DNA of 64,000 nt from Candidatus Thorarchaeota archaeon (GTDB lineage Archaea; Asgardarchaeota; Thorarchaeia; Thorarchaeales; Thorarchaeaceae): the NCBI GenBank assembly GCA_048882045.1, contig JBHLRZ010000019.1:1-64000 (forward strand). The letters are read 5' to 3'. Position 1 is the first letter of the stretch, and the number at the start of each line of letters is the position of its first letter. Position numbers and translations under genes: made by a program. Below, one piece after another: positions 4,613-64,000 of the stretch. Below the pieces are notes generated by a model, which was not told where the DNA came from, ran no database searches, and worked only from the letters and a program-made list of their open reading frames with translations.

Positions 4613-6568
4613 CTGGCCAGAGGAAAACGTAGAAGAGGCAAATTTCGAAGAGGCCATGCTCCATATCTTGCTAAGATTAGATTCTTCTGGTGTGACTCCT
4701 GCAATGTTCCAAGAATTGCAGATACAGACTGCAATGTTTGCGGAACCTCTCCTCGAAAGGTGAACCTATCTCCTCCAGGAGACCCTTTCCCCGCAATGGA
4801 GGGCCATCTTGAACGTGCGATCAGTACTCTAGATATTCAATTTGGGAACGGTGTAGGGAAATCTCTGCTTCCATCTAACAAAGTTGTAGTGATGAACAAG
4901 GTTTCATCTCTTGATGCCATGTATGAGGTCATTGTAGATGGTTTCATCGTTGGTCGTCTTAGATTTGACATTCCAAAACGTGGATACACGTTCCTCCTAT
5001 CGCTTGAAGGAGCACGAAGAGTAGGTGCTGTCAGTAAACAGAAATGGGTTTCACTACATGATGGTGTCCTGAAATACCTGAAAGACGGCGCCAACCTCAT
5101 GGTTCCTGGTGTTCAAGGTTGTGACTCTGATATCGAGATTAATGATGAGGTCTGGATTATTGATTCTGATGGAATGGTTGTTGCTGCCGGAATTGCAAGG
5201 ATGACAGGGGCCGAGATAGCAAAGGAATCCAAAGGCTTTGCAGTGAAGATACGCTCAGTCGACAACCCAATAGGTCCGTCTGAAAATCCGAAGGAATCTA
5301 CGTGGGAGGATGCTGTTCACTCAAACTTGAGGGATCTTGAGAATGTTGAAACCGAGGCGATATCCTTTGTCAAGAGGACAATAGAAAGACAGCCTGATAT
5401 TCCAGTAGTAGTCGCTTTCAGTGGAGGCAAGGACTCTTTAGCCACGTATCTAGTGGTTGAGAAAGCAATACGGGAGAGTCCTCCCATATTCTTTATGGAC
5501 ACTGGTATTGAACTCCCTGAAACGATTGAATATATTGAGAACTTTGCCAACTCTCGGGATACAAAGATCATAGGTCAGAGAGCTGGTGAAAGATTCTGGG
5601 AATCTGTTGATACATTTGGTCCTCCCGCACGAGACTTCAGATGGTGCTGCAAGGTCCTTAAACTCGGTCCAGCAGCCACCTCAATTGCTGATGAAATGGG
5701 TGGTGAAAACTTGAGCTTTATGGGACAGAGGAAACTGGAATCCTACCAGCGATCCATTGAGCCTAGAGTCACAGAAAATCCATGGGTACCAGGTCAGACA
5801 TCCGCGAACCCAATCCAGAACTGGAACGCTCTGGAAGTCTGGCTCTACATCTTCCACAAAAGAGAGCACTTCAACCCTCTCTACAATCGAGGATACCATC
5901 GCATGGGATGTTATCTGTGCCCCTCATCACCCCTAGCAGAACTAGAGAGTCTAAGAGAGACCCACCCCATACTTCACAAGCAATGGATGTCCAAAATGAA
6001 GGAATGGGCCGATAAGTATGGTTTTCCTGACGAATGGGTTGACATGGGATTCTGGAGATGGAAGAACCTACCACAGGGCCAGATGGAACTAGTAAACAAA
6101 CTTGGTCTGAACATCGAACCAGATAGGTCCAGTCCTGGACAGAGTCTGAACCTGACAGTAACAAAAGGAGTTTCGCCGTGTGTCAAATCTGGCTTTAGTC
6201 TGGAGGGATCTTTTTCGTCAGGGATTGACCTGAATCGAGTGTCCAAGCTGTTTCCCATATTCGGAAAGACCAAACTGTCAGAAGAGCTGGGTGCCCTACG
6301 TACTTCGGCCGGTGAGAACAGCATCGCGCTGTTCAGCTCAGGATCAGTAGTGATACGAGGAGATAAGGAGAAGTCTGTGGAGCGCCTTACAGACCAGATA
6401 GAACGTGCCATGAAGAGGGCCTTATTCTGTCAGGCATGCGGATCCTGTATCCCTCAATGTGAACATGGTGCCCTCAATCTAGATGATGGAAGGCTTGCAG
6501 TGGATGAGGAGAAATGCACAAACTGCCTCAAGTGCGATAATTGGCCTTGTCCTGTATATCTCTCTTAG
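4613..6568 (+). CDS. PAPS-reductase family protein (N-terminal Zn finger, PUA domain, PP-loop, C-terminal 4Fe-4S)
   Basis: SGGKDS PP-loop, WCCK, GCYLC, C-terminal CxxCxxCxxxC and CxxCxxC. The frame stays open 49 codons upstream of 4760 (WCDSCNVP...CNVCG) to a CTG at 4613 that follows an in-frame TAG. Confidence 0.85.
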   Translation: MARGKRRRGKFRRGHAPYLAKIRFFWCDSCNVPRIADTDCNVCGTSPRKVNLSPPGDPFPAMEGHLERAISTLDIQFGNGVGKSLLPSNKVVVMNKVSSLDAMYEVIVDGFIVGRLRFDIPKRGYTFLLSLEGARRVGAVSKQKWVSLHDGVLKYLKDGANLMVPGVQGCDSDIEINDEVWIIDSDGMVVAAGIARMTGAEIAKESKGFAVKIRSVDNPIGPSENPKESTWEDAVHSNLRDLENVETEAISFVKRTIERQPDIPVVVAFSGGKDSLATYLVVEKAIRESPPIFFMDTGIELPETIEYIENFANSRDTKIIGQRAGERFWESVDTFGPPARDFRWCCKVLKLGPAATSIADEMGGENLSFMGQRKLESYQRSIEPRVTENPWVPGQTSANPIQNWNALEVWLYIFHKREHFNPLYNRGYHRMGCYLCPSSPLAELESLRETHPILHKQWMSKMKEWADKYGFPDEWVDMGFWRWKNLPQGQMELVNKLGLNIEPDRSSPGQSLNLTVTKGVSPCVKSGFSLEGSFSSGIDLNRVSKLFPIFGKTKLSEELGALRTSAGENSIALFSSGSVVIRGDKEKSVERLTDQIERAMKRALFCQACGSCIPQCEHGALNLDDGRLAVDEEKCTNCLKCDNWPCPVYLS

Positions 6569-7589
6569 GTGGAAATTTCTTCTTCCAACGTTCAGCAAGT
6601 CCACTACACGTCAGAATTTCTGGATCTGCTTCTTTGATATTCTTGAGGAGTTTCTTGTATGAGTCATGATATTTCGGATGGCCAAAGTCTTCTGGATCTG
6701 GATGTAGGATGAATACTGCAAGGCCTCCCCTTGATTTGATATACTCCATCTTCTTATTCCAAACTTTTAGCATGTTTTCCTCTGAAAGTCTGTAGTAATA
6801 TAGAAGAGTCCAGTCTTGTGGCATGGAAACAGGAATCTCCAGCATTGGACTCTGTTGCCAGTCCTCATCATCGCGATACAATGGATAGAAAGGAAAGATG
6901 GTCCGACTTCCTGTTGTAGCATATCCTACTGTGGAGTCATCGGTGTCCGGAAATGATGAATCCCAGTCATATCCTGCTTCAGTCAGGTGTTGGATCATCG
7001 TTTTGGTTCTATGAAGCATTGGTGCACGATATCCAAGCGATTTTAGTTTCAGCTCCCGTCCACGTGCCGCAGACCTTTCGATTCTATCTTTTTGTTCAGA
7101 TATAGATAGAAATGGAAAACGTCCATCATGATGAAGTCCATGCATTCCAAAATCGAACCCGTCCTTAACTAGGGTATTGATGAAATCTAGGTCAATCTTG
7201 TACTCGTTTGACTCAGCCACGATATGGAATGATGAAACCATATCTTCAGCCTGTTCCATTTCTACAAACTTAGCCAATCCAAATTCATAGCCAATGCGGG
7301 TATCCACATCATGGGACATAATCACTCCAAAGTCCTTTTGCCAGAACTCTCTCTTCTCTTCGGTTGTAGGATCTAATCTATCAGCCAGATCATCAATTGG
7401 GAATTCCCTTCTTCTCTGACCTGCTGGTGGTTTCTTTCTGAATAGAGATAGCATTGAAACAAAGGAGTTTCTAATCTGATGAGGAATGTGATCAACCAGG
7501 TTCAGATTAACTCCATACTGCATTGCAGCTGGAGGTTCATACTTGATATCCATCTCGTTTCGATAGTAGTCACTCTTTGAAACCTTCAC
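6528..7589 (-). CDS. Polysaccharide deacetylase family protein
   Basis: SHDVD, GMHGLHH, YRAP, WDSS, LHP motifs of the NodB-like fold. Confidence 0.85.
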   Translation of the reverse strand: MKVSKSDYYRNEMDIKYEPPAAMQYGVNLNLVDHIPHQIRNSFVSMLSLFRKKPPAGQRRREFPIDDLADRLDPTTEEKREFWQKDFGVIMSHDVDTRIGYEFGLAKFVEMEQAEDMVSSFHIVAESNEYKIDLDFINTLVKDGFDFGMHGLHHDGRFPFLSISEQKDRIERSAARGRELKLKSLGYRAPMLHRTKTMIQHLTEAGYDWDSSFPDTDDSTVGYATTGSRTIFPFYPLYRDDEDWQQSPMLEIPVSMPQDWTLLYYYRLSEENMLKVWNKKMEYIKSRGGLAVFILHPDPEDFGHPKYHDSYKKLLKNIKEADPEILTCSGLAERWKKKFPPKRDIQDKANYRT

Positions 7590-37200: not shown

Positions 37201-37318
37201 TGGTGCGGAGGGCGAGATTTGAATTTGCGCTCCGAGTCGAATTGGCTCGGGGGCTCGCGAACTCCTACGAGACTAGGCCCTCAACCTAGCGCCTTTAACC
37301 TGGCTGGGCAACCTCCGC
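37201..37318 (-). tRNA. tRNA-Leu(GAG) with 30-nt intron at position 53/54 (37224-37253)
   Basis: Removing CCCCCGAGCCAATTCGACTCGGAGCGCAAA restores a canonical long-variable-arm tRNA-Leu with GCGAG-TTCAAAT-CTCGC T arm and CCA. Confidence 0.9.
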
Positions 37319-37623: not shown

Positions 37624-37719
37624 TGGAGTTCCGGGCGGGATTCGAAATCGTGAGTCATGGTATAGATGTCCATGAGGTCCCGCGACCACCAGCCTACAAA
37701 GCTGACGCGATAACCTTTA
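37624..37719 (-). pseudogene. Degenerate tRNA-Thr remnant (TGT), lacking 5' acceptor strand, with 32-nt intron-like insert at 53/54
   Basis: Direct repeat of most of tRNA-Thr 39184-39259 with ~6 substitutions plus insert 37647-37678. Confidence 0.85.
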
Positions 37720-37767
37720 TGGTCTTATCCAATTCCTTATCTATAAATCAACAAGAAATTAACAATC

Positions 37768-38625
37768 ATGAATTCCATTGAGTTGTCAAGAGATACGCTA
37801 GTACGGATTACAGTCTTTGTTTTGATCTACACATCATTTGGACTGCTTATTCCAATTCAGGGATATCTTTCCCTGAGTTTTGCTGTTGGAATGGTAATCA
37901 CCGCTGTTCTCTATGCCTTTGCTTTGTACTACATGAATACGAAAATTCCTTTGGGAAGAAAGTTTCGGATATTGATAACATGGATTGCTGTTTATGTTAT
38001 CCAGATGCTTAATCCAGTTCTAGAAGGCATCTTTTTCACAACCCAATTTGAAGGGCAACCAGAGTTAGCATTCGGCGCTGTTGTCTTTGGACTGGTTCTT
38101 ACACTACCAACAGCACTAGTAGCAGGAGTTCTGTTCAACCCAGAAGGAACAATCTCAAGCTTTGGCCAACTCAGAAAGGAATACTTGGGAAACTGGACCC
38201 CCTCACAGTTTGTTGTACGATTCATCATTGCGTCTATGCTTTGGTTAGTCATTTACTATACAATTGGAACCATAATTGCACCCTTAGTACTTCCGTACTA
38301 CACTGGTGGCAGCGTGGGTTACGACTTGGCCCTCCCTGCGGTCGAGATTGTAATCATACTTCAGACAGTTCGAGGATTCATCTATGTCACTAGTGTTCTC
38401 CCGATTGTAATATCAGTGAAGCTAGACAGGAAGTCACTAGCAATCATACTAGTTGCACTTCTTTACATTGCAGGTGCTTTGGCTGTCTTTGTCATATCTG
38501 ACCAATTTCCAGTCTTCTTGCGAATTGTTCATGGGATTGAATTGTTTGTTGATTCATTAATTGCAGGTGTCGTGATCGCCTTTCTTTTAGGAAAACCAGA
38601 AGAATTACTTCCTAGCCCAGAGTGA
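37768..38625 (+). CDS. Polytopic membrane protein, unknown function
   Basis: 285-aa ORF with about 8 hydrophobic segments, two-fold internal repeat appearance. Confidence 0.75.
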   Translation: MNSIELSRDTLVRITVFVLIYTSFGLLIPIQGYLSLSFAVGMVITAVLYAFALYYMNTKIPLGRKFRILITWIAVYVIQMLNPVLEGIFFTTQFEGQPELAFGAVVFGLVLTLPTALVAGVLFNPEGTISSFGQLRKEYLGNWTPSQFVVRFIIASMLWLVIYYTIGTIIAPLVLPYYTGGSVGYDLALPAVEIVIILQTVRGFIYVTSVLPIVISVKLDRKSLAIILVALLYIAGALAVFVISDQFPVFLRIVHGIELFVDSLIAGVVIAFLLGKPEELLPSPE

Positions 38626-38640
38626 GTTGAGGTCGTTTTC

Positions 38641-39183
38641 ATGCGTGTACTTGAATCTATTCAGAGAAGGTCCTCTCTGCGAAATCTCATTCTTATGATA
38701 ATCTCGAGCTTCGTCATTGTGATGGTCATGGCTATGTTGACTCAAATTTTGGTCTATGATGTCTATGCTGATGTCACAATGCCTGACACACGATTTTCAT
38801 ATTCGATTAATGAAATTACGGATGTGTTTGACACATTAGGTCAGGAAGGCTTATTCGCATGGACTCAAGCACATATGCTTGATTTTCTGTTTCCACTTAC
38901 CTATATGTTTGCACTCGCATTTGGAATAAATCTGGAACTCAGAAACTCATATCCTGACGATACCAGAGCGAAGTTCTTGGTACTCTTTCCGTTGTTCGGA
39001 GGAATCATGGACTATGTCGAGAACATTTTGGTGCTGACACAGATTGCCTCATACCCACTACTTTCTGAATCCGTAATTATCATTGCCAGTACTATCACAT
39101 CTTTGAAGTGGATTCTTTTAGGAGCTGGCTTTGTTATTGTCTTTGCACTGATTCCAATAATGCTCTACAGAAAGAAGAAGTAA
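38641..39183 (+). CDS. 4-TM membrane protein, unknown function
   Basis: MPDTRFSYS...LDFLFPLTY...DYVEN...LKW pattern typical of a widespread uncharacterised membrane family. Confidence 0.75.
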   Translation: MRVLESIQRRSSLRNLILMIISSFVIVMVMAMLTQILVYDVYADVTMPDTRFSYSINEITDVFDTLGQEGLFAWTQAHMLDFLFPLTYMFALAFGINLELRNSYPDDTRAKFLVLFPLFGGIMDYVENILVLTQIASYPLLSESVIIIASTITSLKWILLGAGFVIVFALIPIMLYRKKK

Positions 39184-39259
39184 TGGAGCCCCGGGCGGGA
39201 TTCGAACCCGCGACCACCAGCTTACGAAGCTGACGCTATAACCTCTAAGCCACCGAGGC
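39184..39259 (-). tRNA. tRNA-Thr(CGT), intronless, CCA encoded
   Basis: GCCTCGG...TCAGC TT CGT AA GCTGG...GGTTCGAATCC...CCGGGGCTCCA. Confidence 0.95.
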
Positions 39260-42076: not shown

Positions 42077-42185
42077 TGGCGGGCCCGGTGAGATTTGAAC
42101 TCACGAACTCCAACTTAGAAGGCTGGCGCCCTATATTCCCACACAACGCATCACTGCGTAAGGTACCGGGCTAGGCAACGGGCCC
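42077..42185 (-). tRNA. tRNA-Arg(TCT) with ~31-nt D-loop intron (about 42135-42165, position 19/20)
   Basis: Removing TACCTTACGCAGTGATGCGTTGTGTGGGAAT gives GGGCCCGTTGCCTAGCCCGGATAGGGCG CCAGC CT TCT AA GTTGG...CGGGCCCGCCA; BHB-like junction. Confidence 0.9.
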
Positions 42186-61496: not shown

Positions 61497-61736
61497 CTAA
61501 CGTACACCGTAGATAATCTCAGCGATTCTATCAATTGGGATTATAACCCTGACCTGTTCACTATCCAACTGGGACTTTTCATCGCCCGTAGCAGGTCTAC
61601 CGATTTCAACATAGTTCCTGCTAACATTTTTGACAACGCCTTTCACTAGTTTATGATGCGCCTTGTCTGTGATAACATCAACAACTAATTGTATCGCAAT
61701 TTTATCATTCATAAGGTCTTGTAACTTATTCATCAA
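61497..61736 (-). CDS. Small hypothetical protein, possible Sm-like/SH3 beta barrel
   Basis: VKGVVKNVSRNYVEI...IIPIDRIAEI strand pattern; GGAG upstream. Confidence 0.55.
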   Translation of the reverse strand: MMNKLQDLMNDKIAIQLVVDVITDKAHHKLVKGVVKNVSRNYVEIGRPATGDEKSQLDSEQVRVIIPIDRIAEIIYGVR

Positions 61737-61933
61737 CTTTGTAGCATCTCCTGACTTTCGCGATAATCTCTCATCTAATTTATACTTAATCTCTTGCTCT
61801 ACTGCACACCAGGAGTCTTAGAGACAGTCGAACCTGGAAACGAAGATTGGTTTCTGTAAGACCTCCACCAAATGGACTGTACTTTGACAAGAAACCTCAT
61901 ATGCTGGAATGACCTAACGGACATGGTGTTAGA

Positions 61934-62119
61934 ATGGGCTACTGGCGATTTGATTGCGTTATCGTGTTGTTGATTCTATTGGGATGTCTTCTTATTGTCA
62001 TCGGATCGCTTTTTGCATTTCAGATCGAGTTGATTTTTCTCCTAGTGTACTTGGGATTGGGTTTTCTTCTACTCGGGATAGCTGTGGCGTTAGCCTGGCA
62101 TCCAGAAGACAGTCATTAA
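61934..62119 (+). CDS. Small 2-TM membrane protein
   Basis: 61 aa, two hydrophobic helices. Confidence 0.5.
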   Translation: MGYWRFDCVIVLLILLGCLLIVIGSLFAFQIELIFLLVYLGLGFLLLGIAVALAWHPEDSH

Positions 62120-62125
62120 CTGACA

Positions 62126-62674
62126 TTATTCGAGAACTCCAGTTGAGTTGCCCTCATCCTTTGGTTCTTTAGTAGCATAATAGAACGAACCCCAACCAAA
62201 TGGTATAGCCACTATTAGAGAGTTCATCCCAGTGGCATCGTCATATCCCATCCAGTGGTTGAAAATATTCACGCTCATCCACGCCTCTCCGTAAATCGTC
62301 TGCAGAATGATATCAATCGAGCCAGTAACTGGTGGATCGATTTCAATAGTGGTCATGACACTCGTCACATTACTCGCCTCATAGTATGCCGAGTAATTTT
62401 CTCCTTGGTCCCATGCGCTCCATTCATTATAATTCAACACCACAATGTCAAGAGACCCATTGGTACACTGTAGGAAGATGTCTATAGACTGATTGTGGGA
62501 CCTCCAAGGAAAGTAAGCATGAAGGGGTATCGTCAGACCGCTCATGATACCAGTATCTGCTCCTGTTAGAACCAGTCCCTCTTCTTGGTGGGGGACCGTA
62601 AATGAAAGAGTGGCTCCAACGAGAAACCCAATACACACGCAAGCCAGAACAATTGAAACCCAGTTCCCCCTCAT
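62126..62674 (-). CDS. Membrane-anchored hypothetical protein
   Basis: N-terminal signal/TM, several NxS/T sequons, C-terminal hydrophobic stretch. Confidence 0.65.
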   Translation of the reverse strand: MRGNWVSIVLACVCIGFLVGATLSFTVPHQEEGLVLTGADTGIMSGLTIPLHAYFPWRSHNQSIDIFLQCTNGSLDIVVLNYNEWSAWDQGENYSAYYEASNVTSVMTTIEIDPPVTGSIDIILQTIYGEAWMSVNIFNHWMGYDDATGMNSLIVAIPFGWGSFYYATKEPKDEGNSTGVLE

Positions 62675-62779: not shown

Positions 62780-62801
62780 TGGTGCGCTCGCCGGGATTTG
62801 A
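62780..62801 (-). repeat. 3'-end fragment of a tRNA (Gly-type acceptor), 22 nt
   Basis: Minus strand TCAAATCCCGGCGAGCGCACCA; matches 63543-63564 at 21/22 positions. Confidence 0.85.
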
Positions 62802-62850
62802 TTATGGATATTTCTTGACCAGTAAAACTGAAAATGGTTTCCGATGAATA

Positions 62851-63528
62851 TTGATACAAAGGAAGGTGGGTTGTACGAAATTTCAGAAATATCAAGAAGC
62901 TCTATTGGTCATCAGCATTCTTGTTGCCTCTTCTTTCGTTCTTCTGATCTATCTGCGTCCATCGCCTATCCCGTCATTTGAATGGAATGTGCAGCAAGGA
63001 GACATGTTCACGTTCTCGATTACAGTTCACAGTTCTATGAACTACACCGAATTAAACAACACACAAATGACTATTGAAGTCAATTGGCTTCCTGGTTTGT
63101 CTAATGAATGGAACTCATCTGAATTCATAAGCGAAGTATTTGAATCAGGAAAGACTTCCTTGATTCTACCAATAATACATGAAAATGGGACTGAAATAAA
63201 CAGCACATTTGCGAATTCTATCAACAACATAGTATCAAGTTGTATTCTACCTATCGGGGGATGGGATATTCTAGATCAATTCTTTCCCAATGATTCCGAC
63301 ACTGGTGACTATGGTTACTACTGTGACACCTACTATTCCTCTGCTGTTGATAATGCGTTTTCAATCGGATATGTGTATTTCAACATCGATGCAGGTTTTG
63401 GTTGGGACAGTCAGATTGATCGAAACACTGGAGTACCTAGAGAAGTCAGGATTTGGAAGTACGGTATGAATGTACCCCTTGAAACATATGATATTACATT
63501 GCGACTACAGACAGGAGAAACTGTCTAG
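62851..63528 (+). CDS. Membrane-anchored secreted protein, unknown function
   Basis: N-terminal TM, FEWNVQQGDMFTF beta-rich ectodomain, many NxS/T sequons. Confidence 0.7.
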   Translation: MIQRKVGCTKFQKYQEALLVISILVASSFVLLIYLRPSPIPSFEWNVQQGDMFTFSITVHSSMNYTELNNTQMTIEVNWLPGLSNEWNSSEFISEVFESGKTSLILPIIHENGTEINSTFANSINNIVSSCILPIGGWDILDQFFPNDSDTGDYGYYCDTYYSSAVDNAFSIGYVYFNIDAGFGWDSQIDRNTGVPREVRIWKYGMNVPLETYDITLRLQTGETV

Positions 63529-63542
63529 TCCTGAAGAAAAAG

Positions 63543-63574
63543 TGGTGCGCTCGCCGGGATTCGAACCCGGGCCT
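63543..63574 (-). repeat. 3'-end fragment of a tRNA (Gly-type acceptor), complete T arm
   Basis: Minus strand AGGCCCGGGTTCGAATCCCGGCGAGCGCACCA with no anticodon or D arm upstream. Confidence 0.88.
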
Positions 63575-63588
63575 TACAAGACCCAGTC

Positions 63589-64000
63589 TTATTCTATAGT
63601 CACTCCTGCGGCATCTTTGGATTCTAGTTGAATCTGTTTTCTCTTTCTTCTTCGTATGTAGATTACACTTCCTGATATGAAAACAGCTGCTCCAAGAACG
63701 CCCCCAATAGAAAGGAGGATTGGATCTACTAGTCCTGTATAGAGCCTCGTCCCCAACGTGTTTCCTTGAGTGGTTCGATAGATGTACCCTCCATTACCTA
63801 CAACCCAGCCATGAGTGAGATTGATGAAATCTATTGCTGTGAGTCTTATATCCGTTGGGAACTCCTGAGAATACCAATCAAGTCCACCGTTTGGTGTGTA
63901 AATCACCTTAGATTCATCACCCACAATCCATCCATTGTTTGCGTCAAGAAATTGGATATCAGAATAATAAGGCAGAAGGGGAGGAGGAAAGGGGGATGTT
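63589..64000 (-). CDS. YCF48/BNR-repeat beta-propeller protein with C-terminal TM anchor (5' partial)
   Basis: DIQFLDANNGWIVG...TPNGGLDW...IDFINLTHGWVVGNGGYIYRT; TM followed by RRRKRK. Confidence 0.8.
   Translation of the reverse strand, partial: TSPFPPPLLPYYSDIQFLDANNGWIVGDESKVIYTPNGGLDWYSQEFPTDIRLTAIDFINLTHGWVVGNGGYIYRTTQGNTLGTRLYTGLVDPILLSIGGVLGAAVFISGSVIYIRRRKRKQIQLESKDAAGVTIE

Follow-up and report, generated by a model that had tools for sequence, protein, structure and literature searches.

The closest described counterparts of the array analysed here are the additive flexible genomic islands of Alteromonas and other marine bacteria, which occupy a hotspot beside a tRNA gene, vary in the number and order of their cassettes in a manner unrelated to phylogeny, and have direct repeats of partial tRNA downstream of the cassettes (PMC4898812). 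In Prochlorococcus, tycheposon islands are built by repeated integration at tRNA genes, which displaces the older elements outward and leaves partial tRNAs as marks of the old events (10.1101/2020.12.28.424599). Integrative elements targeting tRNA genes in archaea and bacteria (Islander database, PMC4383910) regenerate the tRNA, leave a displaced direct repeat of its 3' end with edges at the T-loop or T-stem, and carry an integrase. Integron cassettes are closed by attC hairpins (imperfect inverted repeats) and are promoterless, co-oriented and served by a common promoter, with an attI site at the array and the gene of an IntI-type tyrosine recombinase at its head. In streptococci, cis-mobilisable elements are att-flanked, recombinase-less relatives of integrative conjugative elements, from which they derive and with which, as a recognisable helper, they sit in tandem; the recombinase is proposed to act on them in trans. 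Williams reportedly distinguished, in 2002, T-loop and anticodon-loop sublocations of the integrase crossover in tRNA-targeting elements. For Asgard archaea, a paper on mobile elements describes integration of large elements at tRNA sites, and the words "integron" and "cassette" are absent from it (PMC8813620). Our literature search, which was limited in scope, returned no description of arrays of the present kind in Thorarchaeota.

The window (the whole stretch of DNA analysed, 64,000 nucleotides) very probably reaches, at its right end, into the distal portion of an island in which single-gene cassettes are stacked behind the anchoring tRNA-Gly(GCC). It fits best with the tRNA-anchored additive genomic islands, reduced here to integrase-free single-gene cassettes. 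The same tRNA-side site, the varying cassettes and the partial-tRNA repeats between them are shared with the islands of marine bacteria (PMC4898812), whereas the Asgard host, the single-gene units, the presence of stacks at nine or more tRNA genes of one genome and the failure to find an integrase are not. Serial stacking at a tRNA site is held in common with the tycheposons, which have their own tyrosine recombinase and a replication or packaging module; neither was found at the Thorarchaeota array. A regenerated tRNA, a displaced 3' direct repeat and edges at the T-loop or T-stem are likewise common to this locus and to the tRNA-targeting elements (PMC4383910), but the units here have no integrase inside or beside them and are far smaller than autonomous elements. 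With the cis-mobilisable elements the array has in common non-autonomous DNA bounded by att copies, but no helper element was seen at the Thorarchaeota arrays.

The original prediction had called the array integron-like, which did not hold, as every defining integron component is missing. The array is not an integron, because IntI and attC are lacking and there is apparently no common promoter: PF00589 had no match in the genome studied, and a profile built from the integrases of the genus had none in that genome or in 88 array loci. Where an integron would have attC, the array repeats 19-31 nt from the 3' end of tRNA-Gly, a sequence that belongs to the anchor gene itself; the only inverted repeat available is the T-stem, of which 25 of 64 copies lack one arm, and there is no attI. 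Instead of being promoterless and co-oriented, the genes lie in both orientations behind 50-170 nt of upstream DNA of their own. Integrons, archaeal integrons and integrase-less attC clusters are therefore analogous in function only, as stacked, swappable units separated by a recurring recombination site.

Copies of the tRNA-Gly 3' end and the genes around them

The genome studied (G000; other G numbers denote congener MAGs and L numbers metagenome contigs) is a Thorarchaeota (Asgard archaeon) MAG of 3.63 Mb in 93 contigs, 93% complete, and the window lies on its contig C19. Within the window there are exactly two occurrences of the 19-mer TGGTGCGCTCGCCGGGATT, both on one strand (62780 and 63543), against a chance expectation of 0 in 100 shuffles. 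Across the 3.63 Mb only these two copies were found, the nearest other sequence being that of tRNA-Gly(CCC) with 2 mismatches. The tRNA-end copies are not due to chance. The left copy of the tRNA-Gly(GCC) 3' end, R22 (62780-62801, minus strand, 22 nt, followed by TTTCTTATTTGG), is identical to the parent tRNA and comprises the T-loop, the 3' strand of the T-stem, the 3' acceptor strand and CCA. The right copy, R31 (63543-63573, minus strand, 31 nt, followed by CTTTTTCTTC), comprises 3 nt of the variable loop, the whole T-arm, the 3' acceptor strand and CCA. Read on the minus strand, CCA is encoded in both and a pyrimidine, purine-poor tract follows each. A same-orientation pair with CCA and a T-rich tract, the left copy being the shorter, had been correctly recognised beforehand; the right copy had been placed at 63543-63574, of which the start stands, but identity stops at 63573. 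No 5' acceptor-strand sequence was found within about 100 nt upstream of R22 or R31, and R31, whose start is 15 nt past the stop codon of the ORF upstream of it, has no leader.

The parent gene of the copies is tRNA-Gly(GCC), which is intact in congeners and is called as such by ARAGORN once the 33-nt intron is removed at the canonical 37/38 site. The call of tRNA-Ser(AGA), obtained with ARAGORN in intron mode, was rejected because it misplaces this intron. In G000 the body of the gene, from the 5' acceptor strand to the 5' strand of the T-stem, forms the first ~125 nt of another contig, C82, and contains two introns, one at the canonical site and one in the D-loop. This contig starts exactly at the repeat boundary, inside the T-stem, where the assembler cut the gene, and conserved right-flank genes come next. 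The intact parent tRNA, which had been sought to the right of the window, was thus located there across an assembly gap of undefined length between C19 and C82. Among the Gly loci of relatives, 5 of 20 have a contig end at most ~110 nt from a tRNA-end copy, and for a sixth contig, G004:C143, the distance between its start and a copy is about 150 nt. Such contig breaks near the copies hint at population heterogeneity downstream of the tRNA.

The variable zone begins, on the left, behind a conserved frame gene for an amidohydrolase (PF04909; 60544-61485, plus strand). Next come a 79-aa ORF of family F9 (61497-61736, minus strand), which in relatives adjoins the anchor gene in some cases and the tRNA in others, and a 61-aa hydrophobic ORF (61934-62119, plus strand), whose homologues in relatives are on other contigs and which is not flanked here by any recognisable tRNA-end copy. 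The cassette gene ORF182 (family F6; 62126-62674, minus strand) encodes a protein with an N-terminal anchor and no Pfam family. Between the two copies lies the ORF225 cassette (62802-63542), whose gene (62851-63528, plus strand) encodes a 225-aa product with an N-terminal membrane anchor, 6 N-X-S/T sequons and no Pfam family. Beyond the right copy follows a BNR/Ycf48-like beta-propeller protein of family F25 (63589-64000, minus strand; PF14870, E 3e-17), which has a C-terminal membrane anchor and whose ORF remains open to the contig end (64386). The expected arrangement of exactly one gene between the copies and a surface-protein gene beyond the right one was thereby confirmed. Gene orientation is mixed (ORF182 minus, ORF225 plus), and each gene has its own stretch of upstream DNA. 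Some adjoining units have no recognisable copy between them, as at 61497-62674, and no degenerate tRNA-end copies were found between 61480 and 62130.

The label "surface protein" is fair for ORF182, ORF225 and the BNR-like protein, each of which has one hydrophobic anchor at an end of the chain and more than one N-X-S/T sequon. The ORF225 family is present in 25 of 28 congeners, the best match being only 38-42% identical to the G000 member, and is fast-evolving. The wider description of the array as one of membrane and surface genes held in part. Many of the units are for surface proteins, and the Gly-locus cargo pool includes a NosD-like beta-helix protein, a phospholipase-C-like protein and many small anchored proteins without Pfam family; but the Gly locus of relatives also has units of other kinds, namely a nitroreductase, an NAD-dependent epimerase, a GNAT acetyltransferase and an ABC ATPase. 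No recombinase was found among the Gly-locus units. The nitroreductase unit always keeps a Gly-type copy, and when it was used to look for hopping of a cassette between different tRNA anchors, none was seen; a homologue with 71-76% identity lies outside any array in four more distant congeners.

Gain, loss and re-ordering of units among relatives

A DNA search of 27 congeners allowed 20 Gly loci to be extracted, giving 21 MAG loci in all, and scanning metagenome contigs for exact matches yielded some 29 more Thorarchaeota Gly loci, with additional combinations of units, for a total of about 50. The frame is conserved, with four genes ending in the amidohydrolase on one side and the tRNA and at least 5 genes on the other. 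The zone from amidohydrolase to tRNA holds 0 to 6 or more small units drawn from a common pool in differing combinations and orders, from almost nothing in G002 and G004 to six units in G005, G014 and G023. The units mostly carry single genes and measure about 0.6-2.5 kb. Their order can be reversed (F12-F9 in G016 versus F9-F12 in G022), and ORF182, which adjoins the tRNA in G012 and G005, is one or more units away from it in G000, G019, G023 and G015; its position in the array differs among G012, G005, G019, G015, G023, G018 and L091.

Over these loci 96 3'-end copies were counted, 32 in full tRNAs and 64 as remnants, although the latter figure includes a few other or variant full tRNA genes and corresponds to about 50 distinct remnants. 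The median spacing of the copies is 1.32 kb. Half of the remnants match the last 19 nt without a mismatch, and 21 of the 64 have 2-3 mismatches. The 5' strand of the T-stem is retained in 39 of the 64, the other 25 being those without that arm, and on their left side the copies tend to begin at the T-loop or where the T-stem starts; no conserved motif was found to the left of the copies beyond the T-stem itself.

Pairwise comparisons place the boundaries at the copies. In G005 the intact tRNA is followed by TTTCTTATTTGG and ORF182, and in G000 R22 is followed by the same flank and gene, the homology between the two genomes beginning inside the T-loop. G006 and G000 have in common the end of the BNR-like gene, the R31 copy and about 10 nt after CCA, and are unrelated beyond. 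The clearest set consists of three loci whose flanks are about 90-94% identical: in L129 the amidohydrolase flank lies directly on the tRNA, as an empty site, in G012 the same flank is followed by a 28-nt copy, ORF182 and then the tRNA, and in L077 it is followed by a 28-nt copy (R28), a lone member of the ORF225 family and then the intact tRNA. It is thus single-gene units that are gained or lost, with the tRNA-end copy as the boundary at which this happens. Because relatives have none, other or re-ordered units exactly at the copies, the Gly locus is a real gene-swapping site. That discrete integrase-free units are concerned, as had been proposed, is supported by their coming and going exactly at the tRNA-end copies by presence, absence and re-ordering; the units are neither fixed nor syntenic among relatives, and their presence and absence at the copies is precise. 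As a separate observation on two of these loci, L129 and G012 are 94% identical in their flanks and only 85% in the body of tRNA-Gly (anticodon stem and intron), with compensatory changes in the stem, and the tRNA-Gly gene seems to have been exchanged faster than its surroundings.

tRNA-end copies and introns at other tRNA genes

A search of G000 with the last 19 nt of 34 of its tRNA 3' ends, allowing up to 2 mismatches, gave 64 sites, compared with 0 for reversed and 1 for shuffled queries. About two dozen of these genome-wide sites are remnants; they are found on the downstream side of tRNA-Leu, Ala, Phe, Val, Ser, Gly and others, in the orientation of the tRNA concerned, at spacings of about 300 bp to 9 kb, mostly below 3 kb. 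Copies are carried at nine or more different tRNA anchors, so that the search for partial tRNA 3' ends that had been suggested revealed a genome-wide phenomenon. On contig C12, paralogous genes of 490 and 545 aa (547-2019 and 5255-6892) run antisense into tRNA-Ala 3' ends, one a remnant and the other the tRNA itself, with similar DNA following CCA in the two cases; the gene beside a copy seems therefore to have been duplicated or exchanged together with the copy.

The tRNA-Thr locus of the window had been taken to have the same layout as the Gly locus, which is right as to its general kind and wrong as to its details. Here the functional, intron-less tRNA-Thr(CGU) (39184-39259, minus strand) is separated from a displaced relic (37624-37720, minus strand) by two multi-pass membrane genes (37768-38625 and 38641-39183, plus strand), which together occupy 37768-39183. 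The insertion is real: in most congeners TTTCTTCTTGTGCAGG comes directly after tRNA-Thr(CGU) and the membrane genes are absent, while in G000 and G002 1.46 kb with the two genes is inserted behind the tRNA. The distal copy, however, is not a short 3' end as at the Gly locus; it is a decayed, intron-bearing relic of 97 nt extending from the D-loop to CCA, next to which lies the ancestral tRNA flank. It has a 32-nt insert before the T-loop, resembling the T-arm intron of the G014 tRNA-Thr, and both its anticodon (TGT) and its acceptor strand are mutated. In G002 an extra 22-nt copy of the tRNA-Thr end separates the two membrane genes, which are for this reason probably two former cassettes. As this locus demonstrates, an intron-bearing 3' part of a tRNA gene can be replaced by an intron-less one on insertion. 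Many displaced copies begin at 53/54, the same point as the tRNA inserts, and the sequences suggest that cassette insertion may be linked to gain and loss of T-arm introns.

Several tRNA genes of G000 are themselves unusual. The tRNA-Leu(GAG) gene of the window (37201-37318, minus strand) has a 30-nt insert between the 5' strand of the T-stem and the T-loop (53/54); it was missed by ARAGORN and fell short of the Rfam gathering threshold, and ARAGORN calls Leu(gag) once the insert is removed. A probable tRNA-Arg(UCU) (42077-42185, minus strand) has an insert in the region of the D-arm; its 3' part alone receives a score from Rfam (30.8 bits), and ARAGORN makes no call there, with or without intron mode. 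Further inserts at 53/54 or in the T-loop were seen at C12:6674, C2:192294, C2:173154, C2:96216, C11:79606 and C76:3016.

Proposed recombination at the tRNA end and its possible catalyst

The cassette, as delimited by these comparisons, would consist of one gene with its own upstream region and, on the tRNA-proximal side, a copy extending from the T-arm to CCA with its pyrimidine tract. It would arrive as a circle, or be copied from a donor array, and its tRNA-end copy would recombine with the same sequence in the resident tRNA gene. The insertion would rebuild the tRNA and push the old 3' end, along with older cassettes, away from it, and the reverse reaction between two neighbouring copies would remove a unit. 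The DNA products correspond to those of conservative recombination of a tRNA-end copy on incoming DNA with the resident tRNA gene, and of the reverse event at adjoining copies, and we infer that the reaction is catalysed in trans.

The trans-acting recombinase itself, part of the original prediction, was identified neither in G000 nor, as an integrase, in the 88 array loci. Profile searches of G000 gave no match to PF00589 (Phage_integrase), PF00239 (Resolvase), Cas1, Y1_Tnp, RVT_1 or the IS110 transposase, under conditions in which the same searches found matches in 3 to 14 of 14 control genomes. A tyrosine recombinase was not detected in 19 of the 28 genomes of the genus (G000 and 27 congeners), and so no XerA-type enzyme of chromosome resolution either. 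PF00589 was found in only 9 of 28 congeners, mostly on short contigs and without arrays; the 15 integrase-bearing congener contigs fetched had no array, and one had a single tRNA 3' end at its edge. The genus profile, built from 17 integrases and recovering 17 of 17 in the control, gave no match at E <= 1 in 11,097 ORFs from G000 and the 88 array loci. In IMG/VR, no contig gave an exact match to the 3' end of tRNA-Gly, tRNA-Leu or tRNA-Val. Three TnpB-like genes lie elsewhere in G000 and were rejected as the source of the cassette enzyme, TnpB being a nuclease and none of the three lying at the Gly locus; one of the TnpB-like genes of G000 (C11:70961-72066) is directly beside an intron-bearing tRNA gene. 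The first unit behind tRNA-Val, of 8.9 kb (C49:830-9769), encodes a 1029-aa HerA/DUF87-type ATPase and a 923-aa multi-HTH protein; having no recombinase, it was dismissed as a helper, and it may be a defence or plasmid-derived module.

Given these results, we lean, tentatively, towards a host or otherwise unrecognised activity acting on the shared repeat, whether homology-guided or site-specific, in preference to a phage-type integrase. A repeat-guided or host process is indicated by the lack of an integrase, by the nine or more anchors, by the fact that units stay with one tRNA type and by copies that are more conserved than their surroundings. A site-specific enzyme is indicated by the left edges at the T-loop or T-stem start, where a 7-nt loop lies between inverted arms, and by the precise duplications. 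Counted against the favoured explanation, edges of this kind are the classical mark of a tyrosine integrase rather than of general homologous recombination, for which a repeat of only 19-31 bp is moreover very short, and some neighbouring units (61497-62674) have no copy between them. An extended form of it, in which Thorarchaeota capture genes at most tRNA 3' ends in an integrase-independent, repeat-guided manner, with a host activity moving cassettes and rewriting tRNA genes as it does so, would be in keeping with the displaced Thr copy having a T-arm intron that the rebuilt gene lacks and with the many left edges at 53/54, and is offered only as a possibility, and a doubtful one.

The strongest competitor, possible yet on balance improbable, is that the units are non-autonomous, att-bounded cassettes moved by tyrosine integrases of unbinned viruses or plasmids, with crossover in the 7-nt T-loop. 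Boundaries at the T-loop and T-stem, the T-stem 5' strand kept in 39 of 64 remnants, a regenerated tRNA and a precise duplication are all as expected from such enzymes, and tycheposons are established to accumulate in tandem at tRNA genes (10.1101/2020.12.28.424599). Viruses and plasmids are often missing from MAGs, so that unbinned DNA could be the source of an integrase, and 9 of 28 congeners do have tyrosine integrases, which lie on short contigs and in one case beside a tRNA 3' end; that an integrase is absent from a MAG therefore proves little. If a helper used the same site, however, it would be expected to be integrated there at times, and none was ever found in the 88 array loci. The integrase is also absent from G000 despite its 93% completeness and from 19 of 28 congeners, the Gly, Leu and Val ends are absent from the IMG/VR contigs, and nine or more tRNA anchors would demand several specificities.

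Improbable is the view that the units are deletion relics, left by large integrase-bearing elements that integrated serially and then decayed, the small units themselves never having moved. Partial tRNAs scattered in islands are known from decayed tycheposons (10.1101/2020.12.28.424599), the tRNA-Thr relic is clearly decaying, and both the 2-3 mismatches in 21 of 64 remnants and the adjacent genes without a copy between them would suit decay, but the whole difference between close relatives can be one single-gene unit at a site that is empty without it, shared units are found in opposite orders, every second copy is free of mismatches, and the 88 loci contain no integrase fragment. That the copies work as portions of RNAs, be it as 3' halves of split tRNA genes or as spare 3' exons, and are not recombination scars, deserves almost no credence, for although the lineage has many disrupted tRNA genes with inserts at 53/54, where many copies begin, R22 lacks the T-stem 5' strand, R31 lacks a leader, copy number varies from 0 to 6 among relatives, and there is an intact tRNA-Gly(GCC) on C82 and in relatives and no 5' acceptor-strand sequence within about 100 nt upstream of either copy; both versions were rejected. 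The probability that remains beyond the host or unrecognised activity, the integrases and decay goes to mechanisms outside these.

For work on such genomes, the tRNA-end repeats break metagenome assemblies and mislead tRNA annotation. For the organisms, the data reveal a very active and fine-grained route for accessory genes, by which single genes, often encoding surface proteins, are gained, lost and shuffled at tRNA genes; of the recombinase genes looked for, not one was detected. Should the enzyme prove to be a host function or to belong to a new recombinase family, this would represent a new principle of gene capture and possibly a new tool. The coincidence of the insertion boundary with the position of the T-arm introns provides, in addition, a testable idea for how non-canonical tRNA introns may be gained and lost.
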